This document shows, piece after piece, positions 23,751 to 39,843 of a DNA stretch of 55,105 bases. The first letter of the stretch is position 1; every line of letters begins with the position of its first letter. Where the stretch lies: UHGV virus genome UHGV-0308106. One strand, 5' to 3'. This DNA comes from a virus. The translations under genes were made by a program, and so were the position numbers. A model generated the notes under the pieces. It did no database searches. It worked only from the letters and a program-made list of their open reading frames with translations, and had not been told where the DNA came from.

Positions 23751-24372
23751 CGTCACCGAAATAATGGATGCGCTGGAGCGCTACAGCGAAATCATCACCC
23801 CCTGGGCGACTAAGGTTGCTGAGAGCTTCACCGCCGACATTGCGCGCCAGAATGAAAAGCAGTGGCGTCAGCACAGCCGGAACATCAGCGCAGAGCTGCG
23901 CAACATGGTTGACCGCGCCCCGGTAGGCCAGGTGATGAAATCCATCGTTGCCGAGCAAATTAAGTACATTAAATCGCTGCCTCTTGAGGCCGCCGATCGG
24001 GTGTATGACATTCAGAACAAAGCCATCGAGGCTGTTGTGACTGGTGGCCGCGCTGAGCCATTCGCGAAAGAGATAGCTGCGTCCGGTGACGTGTCACGCT
24101 CGCGAGCGAACCTTATCGCCCGTACCGAGCTTGGACGCGCAACCGGCGCGCTCGATCAGGCGCGTGCGCTGTCAATCGGCTCGAATGGTTATATCTGGCG
24201 TACAGCCGAAGATGGCGACGTCCGGCATTCTCATCGGGAGATGGAAGGTAAGTTTGTCGAATGGGGCCGACCTCCAACGCTTGACGGTATGACCGGTCAC
24301 GCTGGTGAGCTGCCGAACTGCCGCTGTTACAAAGAAATCGTCTTCCCCAACCCTCATTCTTATCTCGCCTGA
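23599..24372 (+). CDS. head morphogenesis protein (Mu F-like)
   Basis: C-terminal region with RTELGRA and GELPNCRCY; start ambiguous (23599 overlaps portal; alternative ATG 23764). Confidence 0.65.
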   Translation: MPKTKRRQASANLATNRQSRQAEIRYRTSLRQIARAVGDIVNGRYDGSNDSVTEIMDALERYSEIITPWATKVAESFTADIARQNEKQWRQHSRNISAELRNMVDRAPVGQVMKSIVAEQIKYIKSLPLEAADRVYDIQNKAIEAVVTGGRAEPFAKEIAASGDVSRSRANLIARTELGRATGALDQARALSIGSNGYIWRTAEDGDVRHSHREMEGKFVEWGRPPTLDGMTGHAGELPNCRCYKEIVFPNPHSYLA

Positions 24373-24386
24373 ATCGCAGGTAAACC

Positions 24387-25619
24387 ATGAAATATTTTTT
24401 CAATACCCGGCTGGGGGAAACCCGCTATCAGCTGGCTGACGGCTCGCTGTTGTGTAAAGACGTGCCGATAGGTCGAACGGGTAAGCAGCTCTACGGCGCT
24501 GCCGATCTGCCAAACCTCAAACCCGACAAGCTCGGTGAGATAGTCGTAACGCGTTCTCCTGAGCAGGTATTCCATCCGGCCACGCTCGCCTCATTCGAAG
24601 GGATGAGCATCACGATCCTGCATCCTGAAGATGAAAACGGGAATGTGCGGCTGGTAAATCCCGAGAACTGGAAAGAGCTTGCGGTCGGGCATTTTCAGAA
24701 CGTTCGGCGCGGGACTGGTGACCAGTCTGATTTGATGCTGGCAGACCTTATCGTCAAAGACGAAAGCGCCATTCAGCTTATCGAAGATGGTCTGCGCGAA
24801 GTGTCGTGCGGCTATGACGCGGAGTACGAGCAGACCGAGCCAGGTAAAGCCGAGCAGGTCGATATTACCGGAAACCATGTGGCTCTTGTCCCTAAAGGCA
24901 GAGCCGGAAATCGTTGTGCAATTGGAGACAGAGACACAATGGCAAATCAAAAGAAAAGCTGGTGGACCCGCATGCGCACGGCCATCAAAACGGGTGACGC
25001 TGACACCATGAACGAACTGCTGGACTCTGCGCCAGCGGCGGTAACGGGTGACGAAGGGGATCTGCCGAGCGGCGTTAACCTCAACATTAACCTTTCACCG
25101 CAGCAACCATTGCCGGACAAAAAGCCGGAAATGGGCGGAGATCCAACCGGCGACGGCGAGGACGATATCAAAACCTTGCTCAAAGCCCTGCTGGCTAAGC
25201 TCGAAGGAACTGCGACGGGCGATAACGACAATAAGCCTGACGAAAAAGACAAAAAAGATCCGACCGGCGACGGCGAGGACGACGAAGAGGAAACCACGAT
25301 TACCGGTGACTCTGCCTATCGTGCCGAGGTTATCGTCCCGGGTATCGATCTGAGCCGTAAGGTGAAACCGACCGCGTTCAAACGTGATGTGCTGGCTGCC
25401 GCTGACAAAACACTGGTTCGCCAGGTTGTCGGTGATGCGGATATCCGCAAATTGCCCAAGCAATCGGTAGATATGGCGTTTAACGCCGTGTCAGAGATTG
25501 CCAAAGGGCGAAACACCCGCAGCACCACGGGCGATGCACAACGTCCAAATATGGGCATGACCAGCATCGCTTCCCTGAACAAACAAAACGCCGACTTCTG
25601 GTCTAACCGCAAAGGATAA
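24387..25619 (+). CDS. scaffold/protease-like head protein (DUF2213-like)
   Basis: 410-aa ORF; acidic repeats DPTGDGEDD x2; C-terminus TTGDA...NADFWSNRKG. Confidence 0.5.
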   Translation: MKYFFNTRLGETRYQLADGSLLCKDVPIGRTGKQLYGAADLPNLKPDKLGEIVVTRSPEQVFHPATLASFEGMSITILHPEDENGNVRLVNPENWKELAVGHFQNVRRGTGDQSDLMLADLIVKDESAIQLIEDGLREVSCGYDAEYEQTEPGKAEQVDITGNHVALVPKGRAGNRCAIGDRDTMANQKKSWWTRMRTAIKTGDADTMNELLDSAPAAVTGDEGDLPSGVNLNINLSPQQPLPDKKPEMGGDPTGDGEDDIKTLLKALLAKLEGTATGDNDNKPDEKDKKDPTGDGEDDEEETTITGDSAYRAEVIVPGIDLSRKVKPTAFKRDVLAAADKTLVRQVVGDADIRKLPKQSVDMAFNAVSEIAKGRNTRSTTGDAQRPNMGMTSIASLNKQNADFWSNRKG

Positions 25620-25833
25620 TCCAATGACTGCATATCTGTACCTTATGCAACTAATATCTATTAATCAGTGCGTTATCGTTCGGAATCATACTGCGTTACT
25701 GGCCTGAACCATAAAAATGACACTCCGAACATGTGCGGATTTATTCGCCGGATTTCGCTTTGATTCGGTACGTGAGGGACTAGAGCGAGAATCATGCGCC
25801 GTTTGCATTACATGGTAGCCAGAGAGGTGTTGA

Positions 25834-27063
25834 ATGATTGTTAGGCCACTAACTAACGTCGAAGTGAAAAGCGCGAAGGCACAGGGCAAGGATTTCAGTT
25901 TGCACGATGGTTTCGGTTTGTTGCTTTACATCACAAGCCGGGGCGGTAAGTCATGGCGTTTTCGGTATGTACACCCGGTAACGAAGAAGAGACAAACCTA
26001 TACCATTGGAAGATACCCGGAGTTTACTTTGTCCGAAGCGAGGGAGGAACGTTCGAAACTGCGCCGTATGGTAGCGCGGGGGATAGATCCGAACGAAGTC
26101 AAAAAAGATACCAGGAATGAACAGCGTAAAATGTACGCGCAGTCATTTCAGGCCGTTGCCGATGAATGGCTAAAAATCAAGATTAAAGAAGGTGCGAGAA
26201 GCAACACGCTTGAATCGCACAATGTGACGTTGAAGCATCTTTCCACGATTTTTAGGCATACCACAGTACATAAAATAAACGCAGCCGATACTATTCAGGC
26301 TTTTAAACCTTTCAGGGAAAGGCCATCAACGCTTACGAAAATGGTTATTACCATCAACGCCATAATGGATTATGCGGTAAATATTGGGGTTATTGAGCAC
26401 AACCCACTATCGAAAATTGGTAAAGCATTCCCGGCTGAAAAAAACGAACCAAGAGCGACTTTACAGAAAGAGCGGTTGCCAGAATTTTTAAGCGCATGGA
26501 ACGAGTTGAGCTTATGGGAGCCATCAAAGCTGGCATTATTATTTCAGATCATTACGATGGTCCGACCTTCGGAAGCTGGCGGCGCTCTCTGGAATGAGAT
26601 TGATTTTGATAATTCAATCTGGCAAATCCCTGCAAGCCGGATGAAAGGAAAGCGCCCCCACGTAGTCCCATTATCGAGCCAGGCTATAAACGTGCTTAAA
26701 GAGGCCGAAAAGTGGAAGCGCTGCGATTATGTTTTCCCCTCATGGCGAAAAGAAAATAAGCCGATCTCACGATGTGCGACTCAGGCCGGAATACACAAAA
26801 CGTCGTTTAAAGGAATGATTGTTCCTCATGGGTTCAGGGCGTTGGCATCTACAGTTTTAAATGACGAGGGGTTCAACCCTGATGTGATTGAGGCTGCACT
26901 CGCTCACAAAAGCGCCGATGCGATTCGAAATGTTTATAACCGTAGCGACTATCTGGAAAAACGCCGGGTTTTAATGCAATGGTGGGGGGACTTTATCGAG
27001 GCCGCAGAGCGTGGAGAGATACTGGAGACCAGCGGCGATAAGGGCTTAAGGCTGGTTGTGTAG
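25834..27063 (+). CDS. int: tyrosine integrase (P4-type) of nested element
   Basis: 409-aa ORF; N-terminal arm-binding-like GKSWRFRYV; catalytic domain (HGFRALAST, AALAHKSADAIRNVYNR). Confidence 0.85.
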   Translation: MIVRPLTNVEVKSAKAQGKDFSLHDGFGLLLYITSRGGKSWRFRYVHPVTKKRQTYTIGRYPEFTLSEAREERSKLRRMVARGIDPNEVKKDTRNEQRKMYAQSFQAVADEWLKIKIKEGARSNTLESHNVTLKHLSTIFRHTTVHKINAADTIQAFKPFRERPSTLTKMVITINAIMDYAVNIGVIEHNPLSKIGKAFPAEKNEPRATLQKERLPEFLSAWNELSLWEPSKLALLFQIITMVRPSEAGGALWNEIDFDNSIWQIPASRMKGKRPHVVPLSSQAINVLKEAEKWKRCDYVFPSWRKENKPISRCATQAGIHKTSFKGMIVPHGFRALASTVLNDEGFNPDVIEAALAHKSADAIRNVYNRSDYLEKRRVLMQWWGDFIEAAERGEILETSGDKGLRLVV

Positions 27064-27104
27064 GGCATATCCATTTTTGGATAATTATGATTTCAAACGG
27101 GAAT

Positions 27105-27129
27105 AGCTGGCTTTAAGCCAGCTTTTTTT
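27105..27129 (+). terminator. intrinsic terminator after integrase
   Basis: agctggc-tttaa-gccagct hairpin followed by tttttt. Confidence 0.55.
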
Positions 27130-27206
27130 ATGCCCAAAGCTAACCGGAATGCGTTTTTTTTTATTCAAATCATATATAATCATATCGAATATATACGGAG
27201 GTTTTT

Positions 27207-27419
27207 ATGTCTATAAGTGGCGGTGATATTCTGCTAAAAGGTGAAGTGAAAGCGCGTTTACGTTATCGCTCAGACTCGTCATTCTACGAGTTTCTAAAAG
27301 ACGAGAAAAACGGCTTTCCAATGCCTTTTAAAGTCGGTGGGCGTAACTGCTGGTATGAAGATGAAGTAGATGCCTGGATAAGTAAACAAAGCGAGAAGCG
27401 CGGGATCTGCACATCATGA
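27207..27419 (+). CDS. AlpA-family transcriptional regulator
   Basis: 70-aa ORF; GGAGG SD; short HTH protein (FPMPFKVGGRNCWYEDEVDAWI) adjacent to integrase. Confidence 0.65.
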   Translation: MSISGGDILLKGEVKARLRYRSDSSFYEFLKDEKNGFPMPFKVGGRNCWYEDEVDAWISKQSEKRGICTS

Positions 27420-27558
27420 ATGTTTGCAGATTTGGGAAAGAGGGCTTGCTAACGGCTATCCGGGCAAGCCCTTTTTATTGTCAGTGGTGGGGATCTGTAA
27501 CTTACGGCCACCAGCGCCGGTAATCACCTTCTGGCTGGTGGCTTCACTGGCATGGCTA

Positions 27559-27918
27559 TTACGCTGCCGCATCATCTGAATTGAATTCAATGTGAATTCG
27601 GTCATAAGGCAGCACGATTTTTTCGCCGTCTTTGTCCAGAACGCCGCCGTTAAGCAGTGACTGAACATCGTTATAAACACCGCGAAAATCACGGTTAACA
27701 ATGCGTGATAGTTCGCGGATTGATACGGCTTGCGCTCCCTCCATCGCTTTGATGATCTGCCAGCGGTTAGGGGCAAGCATAGTTTTAGCCAGTTGTTCTA
27801 CAGTGGGAAAAATCAGTTCGGAACCGATGAAATCCCCGTTCATTGCGCGGGAGGCGTCGGACATTGCCACCCGGAAAGCATCATCAACGGTCATTACTCT
27901 GACGGTCAGCACTCGCAT
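27559..27918 (-). CDS. winged-HTH protein (antitoxin/regulator-like)
   Basis: 119-aa ORF, GGAGG SD, 4-bp gap after upstream 93-aa gene; HTH-like AVSIRELSRIVNRDFRGVYNDV. Confidence 0.5.
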   Translation of the reverse strand: MRVLTVRVMTVDDAFRVAMSDASRAMNGDFIGSELIFPTVEQLAKTMLAPNRWQIIKAMEGAQAVSIRELSRIVNRDFRGVYNDVQSLLNGGVLDKDGEKIVLPYDRIHIEFNSDDAAA

Positions 27919-27922
27919 GGTA

Positions 27923-28204
27923 TTACCTCCTCAACAGGTTTATGTCAGCCTGAAAGCTGGCGATCAGGTTCTCAATGGTGGTGAATGTCACCGGATATTC
28001 CCGATCATGGATGTGTTTGTGGTCGCCTTTGCCACGTTCGTTGTCGTAACGCATGACGCACTCGCCATCTACGATGTAGGCCAGACTGTACTTGTATTGG
28101 TGCTGGCTACCTAAAATTGCCGGGTCTACTTCCAGAATGCGGATCGAGGCGAAAGCGTTATCAGCTATCTGGATACGGCGGTTCATCAACTCAACAGCGG
28201 GCAT
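27923..28204 (-). CDS. small protein (toxin-like partner, family not recognised)
   Basis: 93-aa ORF, AAGGAG SD, operator palindromes immediately upstream. Confidence 0.45.
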   Translation of the reverse strand: MPAVELMNRRIQIADNAFASIRILEVDPAILGSQHQYKYSLAYIVDGECVMRYDNERGKGDHKHIHDREYPVTFTTIENLIASFQADINLLRR

Positions 28205-28220
28205 TGGCTTATCTCCTTGT

Positions 28221-28270
28221 TGATGTAAATAATAACATCACAAACGAATGATGTAAATGATTACATCATT
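28221..28270. promoter_or_regulatory. inverted-repeat operators upstream of two-gene cassette
   Basis: tgatgt-aaataata-acatca (28221-28240) and aatgatgtaa-atga-ttacatcatt (28247-28270). Confidence 0.45.
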
Positions 28271-28412
28271 GCGGGTAAGTTACCGATGGCATGAACGGTT
28301 CGCTGCTGGTGGCTCTCGATCTCCTGAAAGCTCAGGATATTGCCGGGCATGATTTTAATCGGCGGACTTTTCGGCCGATTGAATACGGGCAGTTCGCTCC
28401 CTGTGTATCGGC

Positions 28413-28552
28413 TTCGTTTCTGGATGATTCGCGTTTCGTTTCTGGTGAATTCGCATTCGCAATTTGTCCGCGAAGCCTTATCAGGCCTGATTTGAGCGGT
28501 GCTCTCTCTTTGCGAATTCGCAGTTCCATTTCGCACTTTGATTCGCAGTTTT
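28413..28552. repeat. cluster of palindromic GAATTCGC/GATTCGC motifs
   Basis: Tandem 20-mers ttcgtttctggatgattcgc (28413-28432) and ttcgtttctggtgaattcgc (28435-28454); further gcgaattcgca and gattcgca copies to 28552; overlapping ORFs look non-coding. Confidence 0.4.
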
Positions 28553-28713
28553 CAAATGTTCCCATTCCGGGGACACGGACGATTAGACAGGTGTTACAAA
28601 CGTTGGTGGTGAAATATCTTCTTGCGCTGGCGGGCACGGTGTGGTTATGATTATTTCGCACCTCACAAAACGGGTGCCGGGCGTGAGAACCCGGATAAGG
28701 TCAAAGGCGACAA

Positions 28714-28737
28714 CAGACGCCTATCGCGTCTTTTTTT
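28714..28737 (+). terminator. intrinsic terminator in leader upstream of icd-like gene
   Basis: agacgc-ctatc-gcgtct stem followed by tttttttt. Confidence 0.4.
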
Positions 28738-28931
28738 TGTCGCAATGTCAGTACCCCCATATGTAGCGGCGCAGATCCGCGCACAGAATCAATGGTGGCT
28801 CTGGCAGGGCAGCTTTCGGGCTGGCCGGTTCCCTTTGACGCCGGTATTCTCACCCCTGTCAGTGTCACCACCCTTTAGAGCGTGAGAACTCAGGTGGTGG
28901 CTCCTTAAATTAGTCAAAGGAGATCATCATC

Positions 28932-29129
28932 ATGATGACTATCCCTACCCTCGCTCAAACAAAATTCACCTGGCGCTTTCTCGCGCTGAATCGCCACGAT
29001 AAAAAAGCCAAACCTTGCCGTCTGTCCGTTGAGGCTGCGACCGAACGCGAAGCCCGCCGCATCCTTGCGCCGCACTTTATTTTGTCTCTGGCCGCACGTC
29101 TGCCAGTGCCGGAGGTGCGTCATGTTTAA
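28932..29129 (+). CDS. Icd-like small protein (P4 family)
   Basis: 65-aa; KFTWRFLALNRHD...RLSVEAATEREARRILAPHFILSLAARLP resembles Icd/Ash proteins as recalled. Confidence 0.45.
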   Translation: MMTIPTLAQTKFTWRFLALNRHDKKAKPCRLSVEAATEREARRILAPHFILSLAARLPVPEVRHV

Positions 29130-30000
29130 CCTCCAGACACTGACAGCTAAAGCCCGTGAGCTGCGCGGCAACGTCGTTAAAGCGGCGAGCACAAAGGGAA
29201 GTCGCACCATGACTCCTGTCTATGACCGTGACGAGCAGCGCAAGCTACGCGAGCGCATCCAGCAGACACAGCCCGATTGGGTGTTGCTCTGGTGGGATAT
29301 TGCGACCGTAACCGGCTGGCGTACCAGCGACGTTTGCAACCTGCGCTATTCCTGCGTCAATTGGGAAACGGGGCAGGCGACAATTATCGTTGCCAAGCAG
29401 ACCAAAGCCGCCGAAGCGCGGGCAACCCGCAAAGGTATTGAAATTGTGCGCCAGCAGCGCAAGGACGCCGCGCGGCTCGCCGCTGACCATATCGCCTACA
29501 TGAAGTGGGATAGTATCGGTTGTGACGAACTGGCCGCCGATATGAACGACGAGGAACAGGCGATTGTGTTCGGGCTGGTGGCAAAGGCTGACGTCAAGCA
29601 CGACACCAAACAGTTACCGCCCGGCATTATCAAGCGGCTGCGTGACCGTCAGGATCGGAATCTGGTGGAGGACGACCTGGTATTTTCACGCTCTCAAATC
29701 GAAAGTAACCGTTGTCAACGTCTGGAAGGTAGCGTTACTCGCCAAACCATCTGGCGCAAACTTCATGGCGTCATGGCGTGGTTTACCCGTTTCATTAACG
29801 CTAAATTGCGCCTGAGCGCGTACTCAAGCCGAAAAATAGCAGCCTTTAATCTTATGTCCGCAGGTGGCGAACAGGGATTATTGGTGGCTTCTGAAATGCT
29901 GGGGCATAGCAACCCGGCGATAACTCGCACTTACCTTCAATTAGGCAGCAAAGCCGCCGCTATCCAGTCCCGTTTAGCAATGGAGGTGTGCCATGCGTAA
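29122..30000 (+). CDS. tyrosine recombinase-like protein (catalytic domain only)
   Basis: 292-aa from ATG 29122 (GGAGG SD); WDIATVTGWRTSDVCNL and C-terminal LGHSNPAITRTYLQ; no N-terminal core-binding domain. Confidence 0.55.
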   Translation: MFNLQTLTAKARELRGNVVKAASTKGSRTMTPVYDRDEQRKLRERIQQTQPDWVLLWWDIATVTGWRTSDVCNLRYSCVNWETGQATIIVAKQTKAAEARATRKGIEIVRQQRKDAARLAADHIAYMKWDSIGCDELAADMNDEEQAIVFGLVAKADVKHDTKQLPPGIIKRLRDRQDRNLVEDDLVFSRSQIESNRCQRLEGSVTRQTIWRKLHGVMAWFTRFINAKLRLSAYSSRKIAAFNLMSAGGEQGLLVASEMLGHSNPAITRTYLQLGSKAAAIQSRLAMEVCHA

Positions 30001-30172
30001 TCTCTTTCATATCACTGGCTACGCCGTCAATAAACGCGGCCTGACAGTCGGTTTTAGCTATCTCATCGACGCCGAGGACGCCATGCAGGCAAAAGTTAAT
30101 GCCATTGCTGAGGCGAAAGACGATGAACTCACCCACGTATCTATTGCCCGTATTCTGGAGGTGGCAGCATGA
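29993..30172 (+). CDS. hypothetical small protein
   Basis: 59-aa ORF not in track; GGAGG SD; coupled to neighbours. Confidence 0.35.
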   Translation: MRNLFHITGYAVNKRGLTVGFSYLIDAEDAMQAKVNAIAEAKDDELTHVSIARILEVAA

Positions 30173-30381
30173 GCAAAGTATCCCTGGCCGATTCAACCTG
30201 CCGTATCCAACAGGCGCAGGAAGTCCTGTCTCTCTGGCTTGAGGCGACGAATAAAAACGATAGCGGCACGGCTAAATTAATCGGCGCAATCATTTCCCTT
30301 CTGGATGGTATCCCCGAATTGATGGATTCAGTAGAGGATGAATTGGCTGGCATGGACTTAAAAGCGATGGATAAAGCATGA
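30169..30381 (+). CDS. hypothetical protein
   Basis: 70-aa ORF, ATGA coupling on both sides. Confidence 0.4.
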   Translation: MSKVSLADSTCRIQQAQEVLSLWLEATNKNDSGTAKLIGAIISLLDGIPELMDSVEDELAGMDLKAMDKA

Positions 30382-31004
30382 GCAACGTAGAGAAATTCAC
30401 ACCGGGAAATGCCGACTTATTACACGCCGAAGCCACACCGCACGGCGTAAACATCATGACCCGCAATGATGCCGGGATGTATGAGCATGTAGCCATTATC
30501 ACCTATGAGAGCGCTGTAAGCCGTCTGGATGCGGGAGAGTACGACGATACGCCAGATATCGGCTACGCCATTCATTTTGCCGTTGCTGATGGCGGGGCGC
30601 GTGGCTGGTTCGACTTTACCGCGCAGCATGAAGTAACCATGTGGCGCTGGCTGATTGCTGCGACGTTCGTTTCTGAGATGAAGCGCGAAAACGGCACAAC
30701 CTCCGTCACGGAGGCTGACGGCACAACATCGCAGGTGGCGATTTACTCCAATGGTAATGCGGGCATGGTGATTTACCCGTTTGCTGAACGGCTGGCGATG
30801 GCGAACAACATCGAGGGCGCAATGATTGAGCGATACGGCGTCGAACAGGGTACGGAAAAAGCCATTGTGTTTTATCAGGCCATGCTGGATACGGAGCGCG
30901 GCGAGCTTACCCCGTTCGGACGTGAAACGCTGGCAGAGCTACACGATCACTTCATTGCTGATCTGGATGAAAACGGCTGGCCTGAAATGCCAGCGGCGCA
31001 CTGA
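30378..31004 (+). CDS. hypothetical protein
   Basis: 208-aa ORF upstream of primase in same operon. Confidence 0.45.
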   Translation: MSNVEKFTPGNADLLHAEATPHGVNIMTRNDAGMYEHVAIITYESAVSRLDAGEYDDTPDIGYAIHFAVADGGARGWFDFTAQHEVTMWRWLIAATFVSEMKRENGTTSVTEADGTTSQVAIYSNGNAGMVIYPFAERLAMANNIEGAMIERYGVEQGTEKAIVFYQAMLDTERGELTPFGRETLAELHDHFIADLDENGWPEMPAAH

Positions 31005-31016
31005 GGGAGCGACACA

Positions 31017-33797
31017 ATGCGTAATATCGACCTTATCCGCGAAGTGACCAGCGCCGCAGCAGGGCGCTGGCCTTATGTGCTGGCTGGGTTGTCTATCGAC
31101 GTGCCTGATTCATCGCGCCGCCATTCTCCATGCCCTGCATGTGGTGGAAAAGACCGTTTCAGATTCGACGACAACGGGCGCGGTAGCTTTATCTGCAACC
31201 AGTGTGGCGCTGGTGACGGGCTGGATTTAATCAAGCGGGTTAACAACTGCGACACTACGGAGGCGGCACAGCTTGCCGCTGACGTGCTGGGTATTGATTA
31301 CCGGGCAGCGCAATCCGACCCGGTGGCAGCGAGCCATATAAGGGAGCAACTGGAAGCTGACCGCCAGCAGCGTGAGCAGGAGCGCCAGAAACAGGCAGCA
31401 GGGGACGCAGAGCAGCGAAGGGCTACGTTTGCCCGTCTGTATGCCGGAATGCGCCAGAGTGCCACACAGGGCGAATCTGATTACCTGCAATCAAAAGGGC
31501 TGACCGGGTTTAACTATCCGGTTATGCCTGATGGTTCGTTATTGCTGGAGCTGGTGGACGAATCCGGCGCAGTGGCAGCAGCGCAAACCATTACACCGCA
31601 GGGAGAGAAGCGACTCCTGACAGGTTCAGCAAAGCGCGGGGCATATCACGCCGTAAACGCGCCAGAATCGCCGCAGAGCGTTTTAATTGCCGAGGGGCTG
31701 GCGACGGCCCTTTCAGTTCACCTGATGCGCCCGGACGCGCTGGCAGTGGCAGCAATTGACGCGGGCAACCTGCTACCCGTTGCCGAAGTGATGCGCCGGA
31801 AGTACCCACAGGCACAAATCATCATTGCCGCAGATAACGACCAGATGGGCGAAAGTGACGGAATTAAAGGAGTGAAAGTTAACACTGGCAAGGAGGCCGC
31901 AGAGAAAGCCGCGAAAGCCGTTTCTGGCTGGGTTTCCATGCCACCAGTGGACTATAAAGCGGACTGGAACGACTACCACCAGCAATACGGCCTCGAAGCG
32001 GCCACAGCAGCATTTAACGACTCAATGTATCAACCGGAGGGTAAGAAAGTGGGTGCGACACTGACAGCTATCGACGGCGGCAAGAAAAAACTTGGTATCG
32101 ACGACGATCTGAAACCGCGAGTAGAGAGCCGTGCGGATGGCATTCACTGGATCACCCCGAAAGTGGACAAAGACACAGGAGAAATTATCAATACCGAGGC
32201 GTGGCTATGCTCTCCGCTGGAGATTGCTGGTGCGGGGAGTGATAACGCCAGACAGCGCTTTCTGATCCTGCGTTGGGACGTCCCCGGCAACCGGGGGCAA
32301 GTTACCCGTGCGCTTCCATGGGAGGACATTGGCGACCGTGAGGGATGGCGCACGCTGAAAAACGGCGGTGTCAGTGTGACAACCAAACCATCGTTGCGGG
32401 CAATTCTGGCCGACTGGCTGCAGCGAACTGGTAGCGGCAAGGAATGGCAGATCAGCCACACCACAGGCTGGCACAACGGGGCGTACATCATGCCGGATGG
32501 TGATGTTATTGGTGAGCCAGAGATACCGCTGTTATTCAGTGGTCGGAGTGCGGCGGCTGGTGGCTATACCGTCAGTGGAACGCCGGAAAGCTGGCGTGAT
32601 TCGGTGGCGCGTCTTGCGCTGGGAAACCCGTCAATGATGCTGGGCGTTGCTGCTGCGCTTTCTGCGCCGCTGATCGGGCTTGTTGGCGCTGACGGGTTCG
32701 GCGTGCATCTTTTCGAGCAGTCCAGCGCAGGGAAGACAACCACCGCCAACATTGCCAGCAGTTTATACGGTGAACCGGATGCCTTGCGCCTTACCTGGTA
32801 CGGTACAGCGCTGGGTATCGCCAACGAAGCGGAAGCGCATAACGACAGCCTGTTACCGCTGGATGAAGTGGGGCAGGGCAGTAGCGCCAAAGACGTTGCT
32901 ACGTCTGCTTACACGCTGTTTAACGGTGCCGGAAAGCTACAGGGGGCCAAGGAGGGCGGCAACCGTGAGTTAAAGCGCTGGCGCACCGTGGCGATCAGTA
33001 CCGGGGAAATGGACATTGAGACGTTTCTTTCTGCTGGTGGGCTGAAAGTTAAGGCCGGGCAACTGGTGCGATTGCTTAATTTACCGATGGAGAAATCAGT
33101 AACGCACCATGAGTACCAGAACGGGAAGCAACACGCCGACGCACTCAAAGAGGCTTACCAGACGAACCACGGAGCCGCAGGCCGTGAATGGATTAAATGG
33201 CTTGCAGGCCACCAGCAGGAGGCAAAACAAGCTGTCAGGGCGGCGCAAGAGCGCTGGCGCAGTCTTATCCCCGCTGATTATGGCGAACAGGTTCATCGTG
33301 TCGGTGAGCGGTTCGCCATTCTGGAGGCGGCGCTGGTGCTGGGGATGCCTGTCACTGGTTGGGGGGAGCAGGAAAGTCGGGACGCTATCCAGCATGGCTT
33401 TAATGCTTGGGTAAAAGAGTTTGGCACGGGGAACCGTGAGCATAAGCAGATCATCGAGCAGGCAGAGGCGTTTCTTAATGCCTACGGCATGAGCCGTTTC
33501 GCGCCGTTCCCGTATAGCCCGGCTGACATGCCGATCCGGGATTTAGCCGGATACCGTCAGAAAGGTGAGCATGACGAAAGCCCCGTAGTGTTCTACACCT
33601 TTCCGGCTGCGTTCGAAAAGGAGATAGCGCAGGGCTTTAATGCGAAACAGTTTGCCCGTGTGCTGGCCGGGGCTGGGGTACTGAAACCGCCAGCCAGCGG
33701 AAGGGGATATCAGCGTAAATCCCCGCGAATTGATGGACGCCAGATAAACGTTTATGTGCTCCAGCTACGACCCGACGAGATAGAGGGCGAAGAATAA
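31017..33797 (+). CDS. primase-helicase (P4 alpha-like)
   Basis: 926-aa; zinc ribbon CPACGG...CNQCG; TOPRIM-like AEGLATALSVH and IIAADNDQ; P-loop-like SSAGKTT. Confidence 0.9.
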   Translation: MRNIDLIREVTSAAAGRWPYVLAGLSIDVPDSSRRHSPCPACGGKDRFRFDDNGRGSFICNQCGAGDGLDLIKRVNNCDTTEAAQLAADVLGIDYRAAQSDPVAASHIREQLEADRQQREQERQKQAAGDAEQRRATFARLYAGMRQSATQGESDYLQSKGLTGFNYPVMPDGSLLLELVDESGAVAAAQTITPQGEKRLLTGSAKRGAYHAVNAPESPQSVLIAEGLATALSVHLMRPDALAVAAIDAGNLLPVAEVMRRKYPQAQIIIAADNDQMGESDGIKGVKVNTGKEAAEKAAKAVSGWVSMPPVDYKADWNDYHQQYGLEAATAAFNDSMYQPEGKKVGATLTAIDGGKKKLGIDDDLKPRVESRADGIHWITPKVDKDTGEIINTEAWLCSPLEIAGAGSDNARQRFLILRWDVPGNRGQVTRALPWEDIGDREGWRTLKNGGVSVTTKPSLRAILADWLQRTGSGKEWQISHTTGWHNGAYIMPDGDVIGEPEIPLLFSGRSAAAGGYTVSGTPESWRDSVARLALGNPSMMLGVAAALSAPLIGLVGADGFGVHLFEQSSAGKTTTANIASSLYGEPDALRLTWYGTALGIANEAEAHNDSLLPLDEVGQGSSAKDVATSAYTLFNGAGKLQGAKEGGNRELKRWRTVAISTGEMDIETFLSAGGLKVKAGQLVRLLNLPMEKSVTHHEYQNGKQHADALKEAYQTNHGAAGREWIKWLAGHQQEAKQAVRAAQERWRSLIPADYGEQVHRVGERFAILEAALVLGMPVTGWGEQESRDAIQHGFNAWVKEFGTGNREHKQIIEQAEAFLNAYGMSRFAPFPYSPADMPIRDLAGYRQKGEHDESPVVFYTFPAAFEKEIAQGFNAKQFARVLAGAGVLKPPASGRGYQRKSPRIDGRQINVYVLQLRPDEIEGEE

Positions 33798-33811
33798 AAC
33801 ACACATACGAG

Positions 33812-34104
33812 ATGTTTTTTTGTTGGTTCAGTTGGTTCAGTAACTATTTAATTAAGATAAGTATATGTATTTAATATATTTCTATACCCATAAGTGAACC
33901 AACACTGAACCAACAAATACCCATTTTGAACCAACAAATGCCGCTATTGAACCAACGCCCTTTTCTGGCTGGCCTGTAAATCTTTCCCACTGAACCAACA
34001 CGAAAATAGCGTTTGTTGGTTCAAAACAAGGCTTTGTTGGTTCACTCCTCAAGAAATAATCCTTACAAAACAACAATCTTTACAAATTGAACCAACTGAA
34101 CCAA
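33812..34104. repeat. iteron array / candidate origin of replication
   Basis: 12 copies of GAACCAAC in both orientations (e.g. 33812, 33821, 33886, 33897, 33918, 33939, 33982, 34005, 34026, 34079, 34088, 34097) flanking an AT-rich tract 33830-33880. Confidence 0.65.
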
Positions 34105-34397
34105 CTGAACCAACATGTTTTTGTTTATCTATAGAGTTTTTTCGGAGAGTAATTACGAATTTGGAGGGGCATCGCCTAAGCGACAGTATGCGGAAACGGC
34201 AACTTTGCGGAGCGGAAAAGAAAAAGCCCGCGCTGGAGAGGCGAGGGCTTTTGTTAACCATGTTTATGCAATCACACAATGGTGGATCACCGTCATAGTA
34301 CCACGTCGATTTATCATTTCAATGTACGCAATGATGTTTACTAATATTGCAATTTATGCAATGATCAGAATTTAAACAACGCAAAAGGTTATGAACA

Positions 34398-34961
34398 ATG
34401 AAACAGATAACCAATGTTAATCTGGAAAGTGATAACGCTGGTGGTACAGTCGAGGTGACTTACTCCGATGATACGTTCGAAAGGCTGACCTGTTCGCTGC
34501 CTGTGGCTCTCGTCATTGCGAACCTTGCAACGACGCTTAAGCAGGAACGTGCAACACGCATTGCAACCGGCGACCGCCTGCGCCGGATGTATACCCGCGA
34601 TAGTGACATGATTACCCGCAGCGGCAGCGGCGCTTCTACGACCTCCACCGCGCCAACGTCAATGGACGCTGAATTTATGCGCCTGGTACGCGCTGTAGCA
34701 CCAAAGTATGACAACGCCCTTCCTGATACCGATCCTCGCCTTGTTGCGCTTGATGTGCTGCGTTACGCACCCGCTGAGGCATTCAGTGCGGTACACCCGA
34801 CCCCGCTATCAGAGATTCAGCTTGATCAGGCTATCGACGTTCTGGAACAGGTTGGCGACTACATGCGAGTTAACAACGTTTCACCGAAGATTCTCACCAC
34901 AGGCGACGCCATTCGCAGCATTAACACCGACAACGCCAGTTTCTGGCATCGCACGAAGTAA
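34398..34961 (+). CDS. hypothetical protein with scaffold-like C-terminal motif
   Basis: 187-aa; C-terminus TTGDAIRSINTDNASFWHRTK resembles helper 24387-25619 C-terminus. Confidence 0.5.
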   Translation: MKQITNVNLESDNAGGTVEVTYSDDTFERLTCSLPVALVIANLATTLKQERATRIATGDRLRRMYTRDSDMITRSGSGASTTSTAPTSMDAEFMRLVRAVAPKYDNALPDTDPRLVALDVLRYAPAEAFSAVHPTPLSEIQLDQAIDVLEQVGDYMRVNNVSPKILTTGDAIRSINTDNASFWHRTK

Positions 34962-34967
34962 GGAGCA

Positions 34968-35162
34968 ATGAGCATGGCTATTTATGACCCGAAATTAGCA
35001 GCAGGAAACCCGCAAAGCGCCGGGCGTAAACTCTTTGGCCGTGAACAGGCCGAGCAATTGCGGATGCGTAACAACTTCAACAACGAATGCCGCAATCTGG
35101 AAAAAGTCAACGAAGCGAATGCAAAGTTCTGGAGTGAACAGGATGAAAAAGCCAAACGTTAA
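34968..35162 (+). CDS. hypothetical small protein
   Basis: 64-aa; contains NAKFW near C-terminus. Confidence 0.4.
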   Translation: MSMAIYDPKLAAGNPQSAGRKLFGREQAEQLRMRNNFNNECRNLEKVNEANAKFWSEQDEKAKR

Positions 35163-35310
35163 GCCGGTATTACTCTCTGGCGACCAGTTCGCCGCAATCT
35201 GCAAGATCCAGGAGCGCGAACGCCAGCGCTCCGATATTGGCGTAGCGCCGTCTGTCCATCAAATTGCCCGTGGGCTGGTGGCGAAAGCGCTGGCATCAAT
35301 TCAGGAATAA
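35143..35310 (+). CDS. hypothetical small protein
   Basis: 55-aa from ATG 35143 with GGAG SD. Confidence 0.3.
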   Translation: MKKPNVKPVLLSGDQFAAICKIQERERQRSDIGVAPSVHQIARGLVAKALASIQE

Positions 35311-35315
35311 CGACT

Positions 35316-36383
35316 ATGTCATATAACTGGATGCGCCATTTCGAGCTACAGCTCATCGATGAGAATGGCAAAGGAATTAGCCTTAGTGATTTCAAAGTTA
35401 CCTTTGATATAGAGCGTAACGATAACAAATGGCCAGCTGTTGCGACGGTCAAGATCTACAACCTTTCACCAACTACTCAGAACCGTATTATGCAACGTGA
35501 GTTTGCCAAAATTGTGTTGATAGCGGGGTATGATGGTCGTGCGCAGGATGTAAGGGCAAGTGATGTGGGGATTGCACGTGAAATATCAGCAAGCGAAGTG
35601 GGCCAGGCTAACGGCGCAAACTACGGAGTCATTTTCAGCGGTGATATCCGCTTCACTGTGACCGGAAAAGATAACCCTGTCGATTCATGGGTACAGGTGC
35701 AGGCTTGTGACTCTGTGGAGGCGTTTACCAGCGCATTTATCAACACCACTATCAGCAAAGGCTACACCACAGAAGATATTTATGTTGAGCTTATGAAAAG
35801 GCTGGAACCTTACGGCATTTCTCGCGGTATTGTTCCTGAATTCCCGGCAACGGTATTTCCTCGCGGTCGAGCCCTCTTTGGCTATGTCCATAACTATCTC
35901 GATGAAGTGGCCGCGCAGTGCAAAGCCACTTGGCAATTCAACTATGGAAAAGTCGATATTGTTCCCAGAGACAAGGCCACTCATGAAGCTGTGGTTCTCA
36001 ACGCTAATACCGGGCTTATCGGTATGCCTCAGCAGACCATCGGTGCGGGTGTGAATGTCAAATGCCTGATTAACTCACGGATTCACCTGAACGGGCTTAT
36101 CCAACTGGATCAGGCTTCGGTATATCGTAGCGCCTTATCTGCGGATCAAATTGCCCAAGCTGGTGGGCCAATTTCGGTGGAAAGCCAAAACGGAAACCTT
36201 GTCACTACTGGATTAACGCAGAGTCCGGCGAGCATTGCTACCGATGGTATCTATAAGGTTCGGTATATCAGTTACACGGGCGACACGCGCGGTCAAGCGT
36301 GGTATATGGATCTGGCGTGTGAGGCTCGCGGGAATTCTGATTTATTTTCAAGTTCATTTATGAATAAGCAGAGTGAAGAATGA
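35316..36383 (+). CDS. baseplate hub-like protein (paralog of 47472-48536)
   Basis: 355-aa; about 70 percent identical by eye to helper hub-like protein (MSYNWMRHFELQLID vs MSLNWMRHFELQLLD). Confidence 0.5.
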   Translation: MSYNWMRHFELQLIDENGKGISLSDFKVTFDIERNDNKWPAVATVKIYNLSPTTQNRIMQREFAKIVLIAGYDGRAQDVRASDVGIAREISASEVGQANGANYGVIFSGDIRFTVTGKDNPVDSWVQVQACDSVEAFTSAFINTTISKGYTTEDIYVELMKRLEPYGISRGIVPEFPATVFPRGRALFGYVHNYLDEVAAQCKATWQFNYGKVDIVPRDKATHEAVVLNANTGLIGMPQQTIGAGVNVKCLINSRIHLNGLIQLDQASVYRSALSADQIAQAGGPISVESQNGNLVTTGLTQSPASIATDGIYKVRYISYTGDTRGQAWYMDLACEARGNSDLFSSSFMNKQSEE

Positions 36384-36724
36384 AGAAGATTATTTTACTG
36401 ATTGGTTTATTGGGCGCATCTGGAAGTCATGCTGCGCAGGTTATTACCATGCAGTGCGGAAACTTTCGCTTTGAGATGATAGAAAACTCGATGGCGAGAA
36501 TTAATGGTGAGTATGTAACATCTCAGAAAATTACAGAGTTCGGACAGAACGGGGCAAAAGTAGAAATGACGCTTATGCCTGCCAGCGATGGGAATCTGTA
36601 TGGGTTTGAATACATCCATCCTGACGGTAGCAAAAAGCGCTGGCTGAATGTTGAGCTTATCCGCACCAATATGAATCAGGCGCGGATCATTGGCTCGTTT
36701 GATTGTAAGCGCGTGAAGGGGTAA
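36380..36724 (+). CDS. secreted small protein (paralog of 48549-48893)
   Basis: 114-aa; signal peptide MKKIILLIGLLGASGSHA; two Cys; shared C-terminal DCRKVK. Confidence 0.5.
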   Translation: MKKIILLIGLLGASGSHAAQVITMQCGNFRFEMIENSMARINGEYVTSQKITEFGQNGAKVEMTLMPASDGNLYGFEYIHPDGSKKRWLNVELIRTNMNQARIIGSFDCKRVKG

Positions 36725-36732
36725 GGGGAATC

Positions 36733-37395
36733 ATGCCATTCATTCGACCCGCAAATGAGCAGGATGTAACACAGCTTGTTCAGGACAATGCTAAAGCATC
36801 TGTAACCAATGCGTTACCTGGCATTATTCGTTCGTTCGATCCCGAAACTGTCACCTGCGATGTTGATATAGCCATTACGGCAAGAATGACGAAGGCTGGC
36901 ACAATGGGTGAAGATTTCCAGTATGAGTCCGTCCGCTATCCGATTCTTAACGATTTGCCTGTGGTTTTTCCGCGCGGGGGCGGAGTTACGCTTACTTTCC
37001 CGGTTAAAGATGGTGATGAATGCCTCATCGTATTCTCTTCGCGTTCGATTGATTTCTGGTGGCAGAACGGCGGTGTGCAGGAGCGAGCTGATGGGCGTAT
37101 TTTAGATCTGTCTGATGCGTTCGTTATTCCTGGCCCCCAATCACAGGTAAAGAAGATATCCAATATCAGTACCAACGCTGCGCAGCTGCGTACAGATGAT
37201 GGAGCGGCATTTGTAGAGGTGTCCGCTGGTGGAGCCATTACTATTACCAGCTCTCAAATCACCCTTAACGGGCCCGTGCAGGTAAACGGAACGATCACTT
37301 CCACTGGCGACCAAACGGCCAACGGTATCAGCCAGATTAACCATACCCACGGCGGCGTACAATCAGGCGGCAGCAACACAGGAAAACCACAATGA
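36733..37395 (+). CDS. baseplate spike protein gpV-like (paralog of 49430-50170)
   Basis: 220-aa; PGIIRSFDPETVTC, FPRGGG, C-terminal HTHGGVQSGG; about 65 percent identical to helper gpV. Confidence 0.7.
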   Translation: MPFIRPANEQDVTQLVQDNAKASVTNALPGIIRSFDPETVTCDVDIAITARMTKAGTMGEDFQYESVRYPILNDLPVVFPRGGGVTLTFPVKDGDECLIVFSSRSIDFWWQNGGVQERADGRILDLSDAFVIPGPQSQVKKISNISTNAAQLRTDDGAAFVEVSAGGAITITSSQITLNGPVQVNGTITSTGDQTANGISQINHTHGGVQSGGSNTGKPQ

Positions 37396-37571
37396 GCAAT
37401 ATTGAAAAACTGAAACCAGAAGAAAGCGGATCCAGCCAGAATGGTAAGGTTCGTACCTGGCTGGATGATATCAACGGGCAGCCGGAACCAGATGGTATTG
37501 GCAGCTTCGGTGAGAGTGCGATCTGCGAAGAATCACGCACAGCGGAAACCATGCGAAATAACGTAGGGTGA
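37392..37571 (+). CDS. hypothetical small protein
   Basis: 59-aa ORF, ATGA overlap with gpV-like stop. Confidence 0.3.
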   Translation: MSNIEKLKPEESGSSQNGKVRTWLDDINGQPEPDGIGSFGESAICEESRTAETMRNNVG

Positions 37572-37599
37572 CGGTCAGATGACGTGATCTGTAACTTTA

Positions 37600-37647
37600 A
37601 GTAGCGGTGCAGGGGCAGAACTCAGCACGCTACTTTTATTTTCTTTG
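37600..37647 (+). terminator. intrinsic terminator upstream of orphan small-terminase paralog
   Basis: agtagcggtgc...gcacgctact stem with one bulge, followed by tttattttctttg. Confidence 0.5.
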
Positions 37648-37661
37648 TCAAAAGGTGAACA

Positions 37662-38135
37662 ATGGCGGCATTACCAACAATGGCTAAGGTTATGATTATT
37701 CAATCATTAGCTTGCTACGAACCCCCTTCCAGAATCGTTGAGCTTGTAAAACAAGATTTTGGCATCGTCGTTACCCGGCAGCAGATATCGGCCTACAACC
37801 CTGAAAATACAATGGCAAAAAATCTTAGCCAAAAATGGGTAGAACTCTTTAATCACACTCGCGCCCGCTTCCAGAGTGAAATATCCGAGATCCCTATCGC
37901 TAACAAAGCGTACCGGCTGCGTATGCTCGATCGCATGGCTAACCGTGCAGAGGCAATCAAGAATTACGCATTAACAGCGCAGCTTATTGAACAGGCCGCG
38001 AAAGAGTGCGGGGACGCTTACACCAACAAATTAAAGGTTGAAACAACGGGTAAAGATGGTGGTCCGATCAGAACGGAAACAACGAACTTAACCGCCGAAG
38101 AAGCCGGGGAGGCATACCGCAAATTTATGGGATAA
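37662..38135 (+). CDS. small terminase paralog (orphan)
   Basis: 157-aa; same length as 19876-20349 product, C-terminal half nearly identical; no large terminase or portal follows. Confidence 0.5.
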   Translation: MAALPTMAKVMIIQSLACYEPPSRIVELVKQDFGIVVTRQQISAYNPENTMAKNLSQKWVELFNHTRARFQSEISEIPIANKAYRLRMLDRMANRAEAIKNYALTAQLIEQAAKECGDAYTNKLKVETTGKDGGPIRTETTNLTAEEAGEAYRKFMG

Positions 38136-38366
38136 CCACCAGCGCCGTGACACGTCACACGCAAAAATAGCACCGCCCATTAATGGGCTGGTGGCACAGC
38201 TTGCATATTGAAATTCCCTGTAAATCTTACAGATCTGGTATTGAGTAACTTACCCCATTCAGCGCCATACATCACAGAGCAGCCTATGGACTACACACAA
38301 AATCAGGCTGCAAATAAATCCTTATATTTCAGTTGATTAAATAATAGCCTTGCATTCCTGTACCGG

Positions 38367-38849
38367 ATGCCTGTTGGCATTGCCGGGGCTATCTCTCGCC
38401 CGCAGGACTTAACCGTCGAACCGGTGATCCTTAAATCCGCTAACGCCTTCGCTGCCTATGGTCTGGCTGGCAAATATGACGCTGACGGCTTTTTCGTGCC
38501 GCTGGCGGACGGTGACACCGCCGACAAGGTGAAGGGGATCTACGTTCGTCCGTATCCGACCACATCGCAGCCAGACATGGTTCGCCAGGTGGGGACGGAT
38601 AAGAACTTCCCGGGTGACGCCATGAAGCGTGGCTACATGACCGTTAATCTCGGTTCTGATTTTGATGCCAGCACCATCAAAAAAGGCGACCCGGTATACG
38701 TTGTCGTCTCCACTGATGAATCCATAAAAGTGCCGCTGGGCGGCTTCATGTCCACGTCCGTCAGTGGCAAAAACGTGGCGCTGACCAACGCCGAATTCAC
38801 AGGGGCCGGTGACGCTAACGGCAATGTAGAAATCTCCTGGAAGATTTAA
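38367..38849 (+). CDS. head protein (decoration or scaffold-like), hypothetical
   Basis: 160-aa ORF directly upstream of major capsid gene. Confidence 0.4.
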   Translation: MPVGIAGAISRPQDLTVEPVILKSANAFAAYGLAGKYDADGFFVPLADGDTADKVKGIYVRPYPTTSQPDMVRQVGTDKNFPGDAMKRGYMTVNLGSDFDASTIKKGDPVYVVVSTDESIKVPLGGFMSTSVSGKNVALTNAEFTGAGDANGNVEISWKI

Positions 38850-38860
38850 GGAACAGACAA

Positions 38861-39802
38861 ATGATTACTTTTGATCAGGCAACCGTAGATAGCTCCGGTG
38901 CCTTTCTCATCGGGGAGCTGGAGCGACTCGACCAGACGCTGAACCTGCCTCTGGTGGGGTACACCTGGACCCGAGATATTCAACTGCGTGAAGACGTGTC
39001 TATCGCAGATGACATTTCCAGCTGGACGAATACCAGCTTCGCCGCTGCGGGTACTGGTGCAAATCCGAATGGTAAAAACTGGGTAGGCAAAGACTCCACC
39101 GCTATTGCTGGCGTGAACGTGGATATCAGCAAAGACGGCAATCCACTGAACCTCTGGGGTATGGAACTGGGCTGGACCGTTGTAGAGCTGGCAGCTGCTC
39201 AGCAGGTAGGCCGCCCGATTGATACCCAGAAGTACGACGGGATGCAGCTCAAATGGCAGATGGACAACGACGAGCAGGTTTACATCGGTGATGACGCACT
39301 CGGCCTGAAAGGTCTGGCAAACCTCGTCGGTGTGACGCTGAACAACGCGCCGAAGACCTGGGCGAACTCAACCAACGACGAGATCCTCGATAGCGTGAAC
39401 AGCATTCTGTCTAATGCCTGGGCAGCATCCGGTTATTCCATCGTGCCTTCTGATCTGCGCATTCCGCCAGAGCAGTATTCACTGCTGGCGAGCCGTAAGG
39501 TTTCCGAAGCGGGTAACCAGTCACTGCTGACCTATCTGGCTGTGAACACTATCGCTTTCCACCAGAACGGCGTTCCGCTTGAAATCAAAGCGGTCAAATG
39601 GCTGAAAGGGCGTGGGGTTGGCGGTAAAGACCGTATGATCGCCTACACCAACGACAAGAAATACGTGCGCTATCCGCTGGTGCCGTTGCAGAGCGTTCCT
39701 GTCCAGTATCGCGGTCTGTATCAGATTGCGACCTACTACGGCAAGCTCGGTGCGGTTGAGCCAGTGTACAAAGAAACCCTGTCCTACGTGGACGGTATCT
39801 GA
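38861..39802 (+). CDS. major capsid protein
   Basis: 313-aa ORF in head module; size, position and composition typical of coat proteins. Confidence 0.55.
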   Translation: MITFDQATVDSSGAFLIGELERLDQTLNLPLVGYTWTRDIQLREDVSIADDISSWTNTSFAAAGTGANPNGKNWVGKDSTAIAGVNVDISKDGNPLNLWGMELGWTVVELAAAQQVGRPIDTQKYDGMQLKWQMDNDEQVYIGDDALGLKGLANLVGVTLNNAPKTWANSTNDEILDSVNSILSNAWAASGYSIVPSDLRIPPEQYSLLASRKVSEAGNQSLLTYLAVNTIAFHQNGVPLEIKAVKWLKGRGVGGKDRMIAYTNDKKYVRYPLVPLQSVPVQYRGLYQIATYYGKLGAVEPVYKETLSYVDGI

Positions 39803-39843
39803 TAACCAGAACGGCCCCGAAAGGGGCCAGAAGGGAACTGAAA

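Follow-up and report, generated by a model that had tools for sequence, protein, structure and literature searches.

The immunity layouts of phages P1 (immI) and P4 are reportedly known from the work of Schuster and of Ghisotti. Both arrangements, CI/seqA in P4 and immI in P1 (a1b1 - c4 - a2b2/icd - ant), are summarised in the study of Tommasini, Mageeney and Williams (2023; PMC10111431), in which the helper-embedded phage-inducible chromosomal islands (HE-PICIs) are divided into Integration, Bro/immunity-RNA, Replication and Late zones, and in which secondary integrase genes are mentioned for ten PICIs, in passing and without analysis. Here we analyzed the virus genome UHGV-0308106, a stretch of 55,105 nucleotides (nt) hereafter called the window, and focused on an operon of six open reading frames (ORFs) at 28932-33797, inside a satellite island, which leads from an icd-like gene to a primase gene and whose second gene, ORF2, encodes a minimal tyrosine recombinase. 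The overall best explanation of this locus, which we hold with moderate confidence, is a C4-controlled satellite replication operon with a minimal, probably active recombinase that acts on the replicon. The early operon itself, its RNA control and its place inside a helper have published precedents in P1, P4 and the HE-PICIs; what is new is the definition of the recombinase subfamily (no core-binding domain, an insertion in a hairpin of the catalytic domain, YxxR and a conserved active site), the link of this subfamily to small plasmid-like, capsid-encoding satellites, and the functional hypothesis that we attach to it.

The original prediction had described six ORFs that overlap or abut and are preceded by Shine-Dalgarno sites, and direct reading of the sequence agrees with it: all six lie on the plus strand at the positions predicted. 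The icd-like leader gene (ORF1, 28932-29129, 65 amino acids) matches NF033153 at 79.5 bits, against a cut-off of 25, as well as phrog_1743. It is followed by ORF2 (29122-30000, 292 amino acids; PF00589), by ORF3 (29993-30172, 59 amino acids), for which the Pfam, PHROG and NCBIfam searches returned no family match, by ORF4 (30169-30381, 70 amino acids; phrog_20558 and others, all of unknown function), and by ORF5 (30378-31004, 208 amino acids; phrog_1515, E 2e-49), a conserved partner of this type of primase that is co-conserved with the primase N-terminus in ~230 E. coli genomes. The last gene, ORF6 (31017-33797, 926 amino acids), encodes a primase-helicase with Zn_Ribbon_Prim, Toprim_3 and DUF927 domains (Pfam) and a match to phrog_1139 (E 4e-186). 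The NF033153 match and the Zn-ribbon/Toprim/DUF927 domains confirm the identities that had been predicted for the icd-like gene and the primase.

The junctions between these genes are tight. The ATG of ORF2 (29122) and the TAA of the icd-like gene (29127-29129) lie in an 8-nt overlap (ATGTTTAA), a second 8-nt overlap (ATGCGTAA) joins ORF2 to the ATG of ORF3 (29993), and ATGA overlaps of 4 nt link ORF3 to ORF4 (30169) and ORF4 to ORF5 (30378); the TGA of ORF5 (31002-31004) is separated from the primase ATG (31017) by the only gap, of 12 nt. Good Shine-Dalgarno sites stand 6-9 nt 5' of five of the six starts, as AAGGAG for the icd-like gene (28917-28922), GGAGG for ORF2 (29111-29115), ORF3 (29982-29986) and ORF4 (30157-30161), and GGGAG for the primase (31005-31009), with just a weak GGA at ORF5. 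For ORF2, the start at ATG 29122 was adopted because PGAP calls a protein of 292 amino acids in an E. coli relative and because the Met1 N-terminus is conserved in the family; it replaces TTG 29029, given by a mechanical ORF listing. In every related locus examined for this feature (L001, L002, L009, L011, L013, L014, L016, L018, L019, L020 and L021), a small ORF overlaps the recombinase start by 4 or 8 nt. As start/stop overlaps are normal in phage operons, we regard the coupling as genuine yet not unusual. The possibility of a defence system was discarded: PADLOC returned no match for ORF1-5, and the primase gave a weak DRT-primase-like match only.

Two structured RNAs precede the operon on the plus strand. 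The first is an IsrK-like leader element of the P4 seqA/P1 a1b1 type (28658-28736; Rfam RF01394, 61.3 bits, gathering score 50), which also matches c4-a1b1 (RF03163) weakly and at whose end lies an intrinsic terminator (hairpin 28715-28731 plus a T-run). The second is a C4-type antisense (immunity) RNA (28788-28875), matched over its full length by RF01695 (78.8 bits, gathering score 45). Its second hairpin loop carries CCUUUGAC, the complement of GUCAAAGG, and the latter 8-mer has just two sites in the island, one at 28700, inside the IsrK/seqA-like element, and one at 28913, with the C4 gene between them; the latter belongs to a C4-loop target (28913-28922, plus strand) that overlaps the icd Shine-Dalgarno site. 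The isrK and C4 pair is also found 5' of the recombinase gene in L002, L011 (Salmonella), L014 (Enterobacter) and L016, whereas L001 has C4 alone, and the order isrK, C4, small ORF, recombinase is repeated in L011, L014 and L016. Directly 3' of the primase gene, at the other end of the operon, 12 copies of TGAACCAAC in both orientations surround an AT-rich stretch (33822-34114). These copies fall within ~290 bp, compared with 13 copies in the whole window, for which 0.49 would be expected, and the stretch is a probable replication origin, like the ori iterons of P4.

By analogy with P1 and P4, the C4 RNA would block translation of icd and hence, via polarity and coupling, expression of the whole operon down to the primase. 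In the repressed state, the icd ribosome-binding site would be covered by the C4 RNA, the leader RNA would terminate for want of translation, and no downstream product would be made. In a naive cell, or upon induction, icd would be translated, the overlap coupling would hand ribosomes on to the recombinase, the three small ORFs and the primase, and the primase could then fire the adjoining origin.

The leader region also gives rise to gene calls of its own. A PGAP "ash family protein" (87 bp, L002 7893-7979) and the Pfam Phage_ASH matches coincide with the C4 RNA gene, and in some relatives (P0001/L016, 1769-3268) an ORF of 499 codons extends from 5' of isrK across C4 and icd and continues in frame with the recombinase, an arrangement that recalls P4, where kil is nested in eta. 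Gene calls of 450-499 amino acids (P0001 and others) were considered as carriers of a missing N-terminal domain, and the added part was rejected as belonging to the mature enzyme here: the extension is translated isrK/C4/icd leader, which accounts for the Phage_ASH match, and PGAP calls the protein without it. The long frame is closed in the window, by a stop before 29029, and in the forms of 290-292 amino acids called by PGAP.

ORF2 scores 41.5 bits against Phage_integrase (PF00589; cut-off 27.1), in two stretches split by an insertion, and belongs to the catalytic-domain fold of tyrosine recombinases. ORF2 has no core-binding domain, and the Pfam search found no Phage_int_SAM or Arm domain in it. 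In the AlphaFold2 model (pLDDT 85, pTM 0.77), the catalytic domain begins at about residue 36, after no more than a short helix (residues 4-15) and a disordered linker, and a four-helix insertion of ~70 amino acids (residues 91-159) occupies the hairpin between beta2 and beta3. The prediction that ORF2 encodes a catalytic domain only therefore stands, on the PF00589 match, the lack of a core-binding domain and the short N-terminal helix and linker. Against NCBIfam models, ORF2 reached 16.9 bits for XerA, with a cut-off of 220, and gave no match to those of FimB/FimE (NF007370/NF007371).

The active-site positions of ORF2 comprise R67, D70, the putative lysine K92, R237, H262 and Y271, with Y234 standing where His-II would be expected. 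In an alignment of 32 sequences, six of them (R67, D70, K92, Y234, R237 and Y271) are among 26 invariant columns of ~290, and H262, at His-III, is kept in 31 of the 32, P0089 having Trp instead. Trp is the classic alternative at His-III. By our own arithmetic on the column counts, the chance that six of the seven sites would land in the invariant set is ~3e-6. The family profile aligns R148/H244/R247/H270/Y279 of XerD with R67/Y234/R237/H262/Y271 (E 1e-6); ORF2 is no complete integrase, being without the core-binding domain, but its catalytic positions are kept except for the change of His-II to Tyr. This change, and not the one singled out in the original prediction, is the real active-site substitution. 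The predicted C-terminal motif with Gln where His is usual (LGHSNPAITRTYLQ) is indeed present, but the Gln of "YLQ", two residues past the nucleophile, occupies a position held by Lys in XerA and by Q, G, R, S or C within the ORF2 family. Being variable and non-catalytic, this position carries no diagnostic weight. Tyr234 (LSAYSSRK), by contrast, is invariant in the subfamily, with the distant member P0110 keeping HSLRK, and the same replacement of His-II by Tyr, which is known from active recombinases, has been reported in XisA, XisC and the SLP1 integrase, and Pf-Int has it too (PMC3466309). As for the candidate catalytic lysine, K92 is invariant and lies 25 residues past Arg-I, at the end of beta2, with a spacing like that of lambda K235; K163, in beta3, is invariant as well.

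Judged from its sequence, ORF2 is probably an active DNA breaking-joining enzyme. We favor an active enzyme because the pattern of conservation is enzyme-like, unlike that of MrpR, a recombinase-fold protein discussed below. Full activity is possible in recombinases as minimal as this, FimB and FimE being examples.

The family to which ORF2 belongs is sizeable. There are 94 close homologues of ~290 amino acids, labelled "tyrosine-type recombinase/integrase", across Enterobacterales, and members with 36-44% identity occur in Shewanella and in uncultured phages. A profile search that covered 1.84 billion representatives recovered ~50 full-length clusters of 260-310 amino acids bearing the hairpin insertion, followed by a next tier of minimal recombinases of 180-200 amino acids that match in two stretches, have the canonical HxxR and are weakly similar to the FimB/E models. 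A tblastn search of ORF2 against 50,697 records of isolated phages gave no match, which assigns the gene to satellites and episomes rather than to helpers. In the loci examined, the recombinase gene always lies immediately upstream of the replication module, usually overlapping it, whatever the type of the adjacent primase (DUF927, D5/DUF5906, or toprim + VapE).

On each of the episome records found by tblastn (L017-L021), the ORF2 homologue is the only annotated recombinase. They comprise circular plasmids of Citrobacter (8.58 kb), Klebsiella (8.71 kb), Moellerella (8.73 kb) and Shigella (13.3 kb, which also encodes ParA and Arc), together with an E. kobei record in which a unit of 8.58 kb is present four times in tandem. 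All of them encode a primase and a major capsid protein, and five plasmid records are complete circles. The metagenomic P0076 element occurs in ~8.8-kb contigs only, almost all contigs being 5-10 kb, and their differing start points suggest that they are circular. The episomes with capsid, primase and recombinase genes (L017-L021 and L008-L010) look like plasmid-like satellites. A separate observation was made on an AT-rich phage-like contig with a distant ORF2 homologue, in which two type I-F CRISPR-repeat-like units, 14 nt apart (L005 7981-8050), lie ~110 bp downstream of the homologue and are followed by five to six tandem cassettes of ~974 bp, each with an ORF of 76 and one of ~123 amino acids (L006 9390-14749).

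We propose that ORF2 would act on the replicon itself, and neither as an integrase nor as a directionality factor. A role in replicon maintenance or establishment is suggested because the homologue is the sole recombinase on small episomes, one of them with ParA, and because the gene always stands beside replication genes and is co-expressed with them. In the most economical version of this role, which is possible but less likely than not, ORF2 may resolve multimers or, in the manner of Cre in P1, cyclise injected DNA that is concatemeric or terminally redundant; if a helper with headfuls of ~42 kb packaged the 12.7-kb island, the DNA delivered would hold ~3.3 copies of it. A broader and doubtful extension is that, in the subfamily of ~290 amino acids, the insertion module functionally replaces the core-binding domain, and that the protein is the Cre-like enzyme of undescribed capsid-encoding, plasmid-like satellites of Enterobacterales, 8.6-13 kb in size, from which integrated HE-PICIs such as this island would have acquired the enzyme; C4 would gate its expression to arrival in a naive cell or to induction.

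Several observations weigh against parts of this explanation. On the side of RNA control, the pairing between C4 and icd is just 8 nt long, the energy of the whole-molecule duplex between C4 and its target was no better than that of shuffled sequences (53 of 500 reached it), and a part for Rho or the terminator would be carried over from P1 and P4. As the duplex statistic is uninformative, the case for control is based instead on the exact complement between the loop and the Shine-Dalgarno site and on the Rfam matches. On the side of the enzyme, K92 is put forward as the catalytic lysine from its spacing and invariance, and K163 is equally invariant. Regarding a target site, a scan of nine related elements for palindromes with 11-nt arms and a 5-9-nt spacer found terminator-type hairpins only and no common half-site; in the window itself, scanning the leader, the origin and the att regions for inverted repeats recovered operator-like palindromes at 28221-28270, the origin iterons and the terminator, and no lox- or dif-like site. 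The tetrameric E. kobei record may be an artefact of long-read assembly. Finally, of ~230 E. coli genomes with the ORF5-primase segment, just ~5 have the recombinase, which is therefore dispensable for this type of primase and not a core replication function. A typical chromosomal PICI holds AntA/AntB and DUF4222 in the zone where ORF2 sits here, and ORF2 is an accessory gene of the satellite's variable zone.

The alternative that fares best is that ORF2 is a second integrase for another chromosomal or phage site, used for instance when the target gene of the helper is absent. The PGAP label "tyrosine-type recombinase/integrase" is in line with it, as is the presence of ORF2 homologues as the sole recombinase on the small episomal relatives. 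However, within a small sample of loci, the relatives without a canonical integrase are episome-sized records only, and each integrated copy examined has a canonical Arm-type integrase and AlpA besides. In addition, ORF2 has neither the arm-binding nor the core-binding domain that heterobivalent integrases use, and we therefore regard a second integrase as unlikely.

The role suggested in the original prediction, that of a regulator or directionality factor, found no support. It would require ORF2 to be catalytically dead and to serve as a recombinase-fold transcriptional regulator or as the recombination directionality factor of the upstream integrase. MrpR, which offers a precedent for such a regulator, has lost catalytic arginines and histidines and keeps three of seven catalytic residues (PMC10516654). 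The ORF2 family, in contrast, conserves six of the seven canonical sites, five of them, including the nucleophile, without exception, down to 36% identity, and the seventh differs by the very change of His-II to Tyr reported in XisA, XisC and the SLP1 integrase. Furthermore, the island already contains a candidate directionality factor of AlpA type (27207-27419), and, to our knowledge, recombination directionality factors are small basic proteins and not recombinase folds of 292 amino acids. Taken together, we consider this role quite improbable.

A further proposal is that ORF2 is an anti-helper enzyme, a site-specific nickase or topoisomerase-IB-like protein that cuts or rearranges helper DNA, analogous to NixI of PLE. 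The affinity of ORF2 in sequence and profile comparisons is to Xer-type recombinases and not to topoisomerases, conservation of the gene is just as high on episomes without a known helper, and no helper-specific target is evident, so that we see very little probability in it. That translation of ORF2 alone matters, with the protein incidental, as for the P4 eta/kil leader ORFs, translation of which prevents premature termination (arrangement described in PMC10111431), is barely credible: the 499-codon frame of some relatives does resemble eta with kil nested inside, but the complete fold and active site are under strong purifying selection over 36-95% identity, the structural model is confident, and the long frame is closed both here and in the PGAP-called forms.

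The replicon-acting recombinase that we prefer is housed in an element nested within a prophage. The window as a whole is a lambdoid prophage with an integrase (449-1699), RecT/ExoVIII, O/P replication genes, a Q antiterminator, terminase, portal and DUF2213 genes. The island is missing from two phages, Citrobacter phage Omnitron (99.5% identity) and the Brunovirus Salmonella phage SEN34, whose alignments cover 21887-25642 and resume at 38351-40864, with an overlap of 14 nt between the two segments. As the alignments jump from 25642 to 38351, an element of 12.7 kb (25643-38350) is inserted in the helper, and this element, a satellite lying within its helper, is a PICI-type satellite in the published HE-PICI configuration. 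The attL core (TGCATATCTGTACC, 25629-25642, plus strand) marks the left edge of the satellite and falls within codons 3-7 of a Gp24-like capsid-cement gene; the attR core (TGCATTCCTGTACC, 38351-38364, plus strand) marks the right edge. The insertion point is 4 nt past the DUF2213 gene, and the island has the same orientation as the late operon. In its presence, the cement gene restarts at ATG 38367, without MTAYLYR.

Equivalent nesting, with other cargo, was found in E. coli ABWA45 and ECONIH5. The E. coli relatives of the island are not in the supplementary lists of the HE-PICI study (PMC10111431), and the doubled attP motif of its 11capE integrase clade (TGTATTGC / tgTGTATTGCantgTGTATTGCa) was not found near either end of the island with up to 3 mismatches allowed. 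The attP motif being absent, the insertion site or integrase clade of the island may be undescribed, and the element is probably a further insertion site or clade of the known HE-PICI kind.

The left part of the satellite carries, on the plus strand, a canonical integrase with Arm-DNA-bind_3, Phage_int_M and Phage_integrase domains (25834-27063; Pfam) and a small AlpA/HTH_17-like DNA-binding protein (27207-27419; Phage_AlpA, Pfam, E 4e-4), which also matches Xis_Gifsy_1 weakly. The position of the latter gene agrees with that of AlpA in L011, L014 and L016, and its product is likely to be an excisionase or activator. Between alpA and the immunity leader, on the minus strand, lies a pair formed by a TumE-family toxin and an HVO_A0114-like helix-turn-helix antitoxin (27559-28204). 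The pair is not in the ABWA45 relative, and it is therefore variable cargo of the dynamic zone. Between the TumE gene and the leader, at 28221-28270, two near-palindromes of 20 nt (TGATGTAAATAATAACATCA / TGATGTAAATGATTACATCA) overlap promoter-like hexamers on both strands, and are likely to serve as operators where the promoters of the toxin-antitoxin pair and of the operon diverge.

A non-coding segment of ~280 bp rich in ATTCGC repeats (28292-28570) stands 5' of the leader, both here and in L001/L002, with five copies of RATTCGCR at 28426-28547 and a 22-nt tandem repeat at 28413-28456. In L016, the same kind of segment sits downstream of the origin (L016 7124-7401, 84% identity). The ATTCGC-repeat segment may be a portable protein-binding module; no protein similarity was detected between 28292-28570 and the gene of 356 amino acids that L002 holds in that region.

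The late zone of the satellite contains diverged copies of helper genes. These are a baseplate hub paralogue (35316-36383), 63% identical to helper 47472-48536, a lipoprotein-like ORF (36380-36724), a spike-like ORF (36733-37395), and a DUF2280 protein paralogue (37662-38135) that is 64% identical to helper 19876-20349, a gene located at the TerS position, just upstream of the large terminase gene of the helper. The diverged late-gene copies suggest redirection of packaging and, possibly, an altered specificity of the tail tip.

If ORF2 is active, it would be a compact tyrosine recombinase of 292 amino acids with an unusual solution to DNA clamping, relevant to recombinase mechanism and possibly useful as a small genome-engineering tool. 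An active ORF2 would also point to a function in maintenance or establishment among phage satellites living as plasmids, a lifestyle barely described among PICI-like elements. For annotation, two lessons can be drawn, namely that, in these islands, the gene of the C4 RNA lies beneath the "Ash family protein" calls, and that a "second integrase" call need not imply a second integration system.

Compared with P1 immI and P4 CI-seqA, the locus shares a C4-family RNA directly 5' of an Icd-like ORF, with a loop complementary to the Shine-Dalgarno site of that ORF, and a second copy of the target in an upstream seqA/a1b1-like element. The genes downstream likewise overlap the icd stop, and, as in P4, the last gene of the operon is a primase, analogous to P4 alpha, after which comes an iteron origin. 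The locus differs in that icd is coupled to a tyrosine-recombinase homologue, where P1 has the Ant antirepressor and P4 has kil/eta/cnr, and in that the pairing spans 8 nt here and control by termination would be reasoned from the known systems. With the HE-PICIs, the island shares the succession of int and AlpA, a dynamic zone with C4 and isrK, primase and ori, and captured late genes of the helper; unlike them, it interrupts a Brunovirus-like prophage within the first codons of its Gp24-like cement gene.

Among recombinases, the FimB/FimE invertases (~200 amino acids) resemble ORF2 in combining a catalytic domain with a short N-terminal segment and in having no SAM-like core-binding domain, whereas the ORF2 family has the ~70-residue hairpin insertion and YxxR instead of HxxR, and the repeat scans found no flanking inverted repeats or invertible segment at ORF2. 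Cre/loxP, XerCD/cer and ResD/rfsF provide the parallel of a lone tyrosine recombinase on a phage-related circular episome, with the resolution or cyclisation role proposed here, and Cre is a structural neighbor of ORF2. ORF2 differs from Cre and the resolution recombinases in being without membership of their group at the sequence level, without the core-binding domain and, in our scans, without a lox- or dif-like site. Finally, MrpR/YopR and SroF, repressors of the SPbeta family, share with ORF2 the recombinase fold and a regulatory context in phages, and are structural neighbors of it, MrpR being a weaker one; unlike MrpR, the ORF2 family has retained six of the seven residues of the catalytic set.

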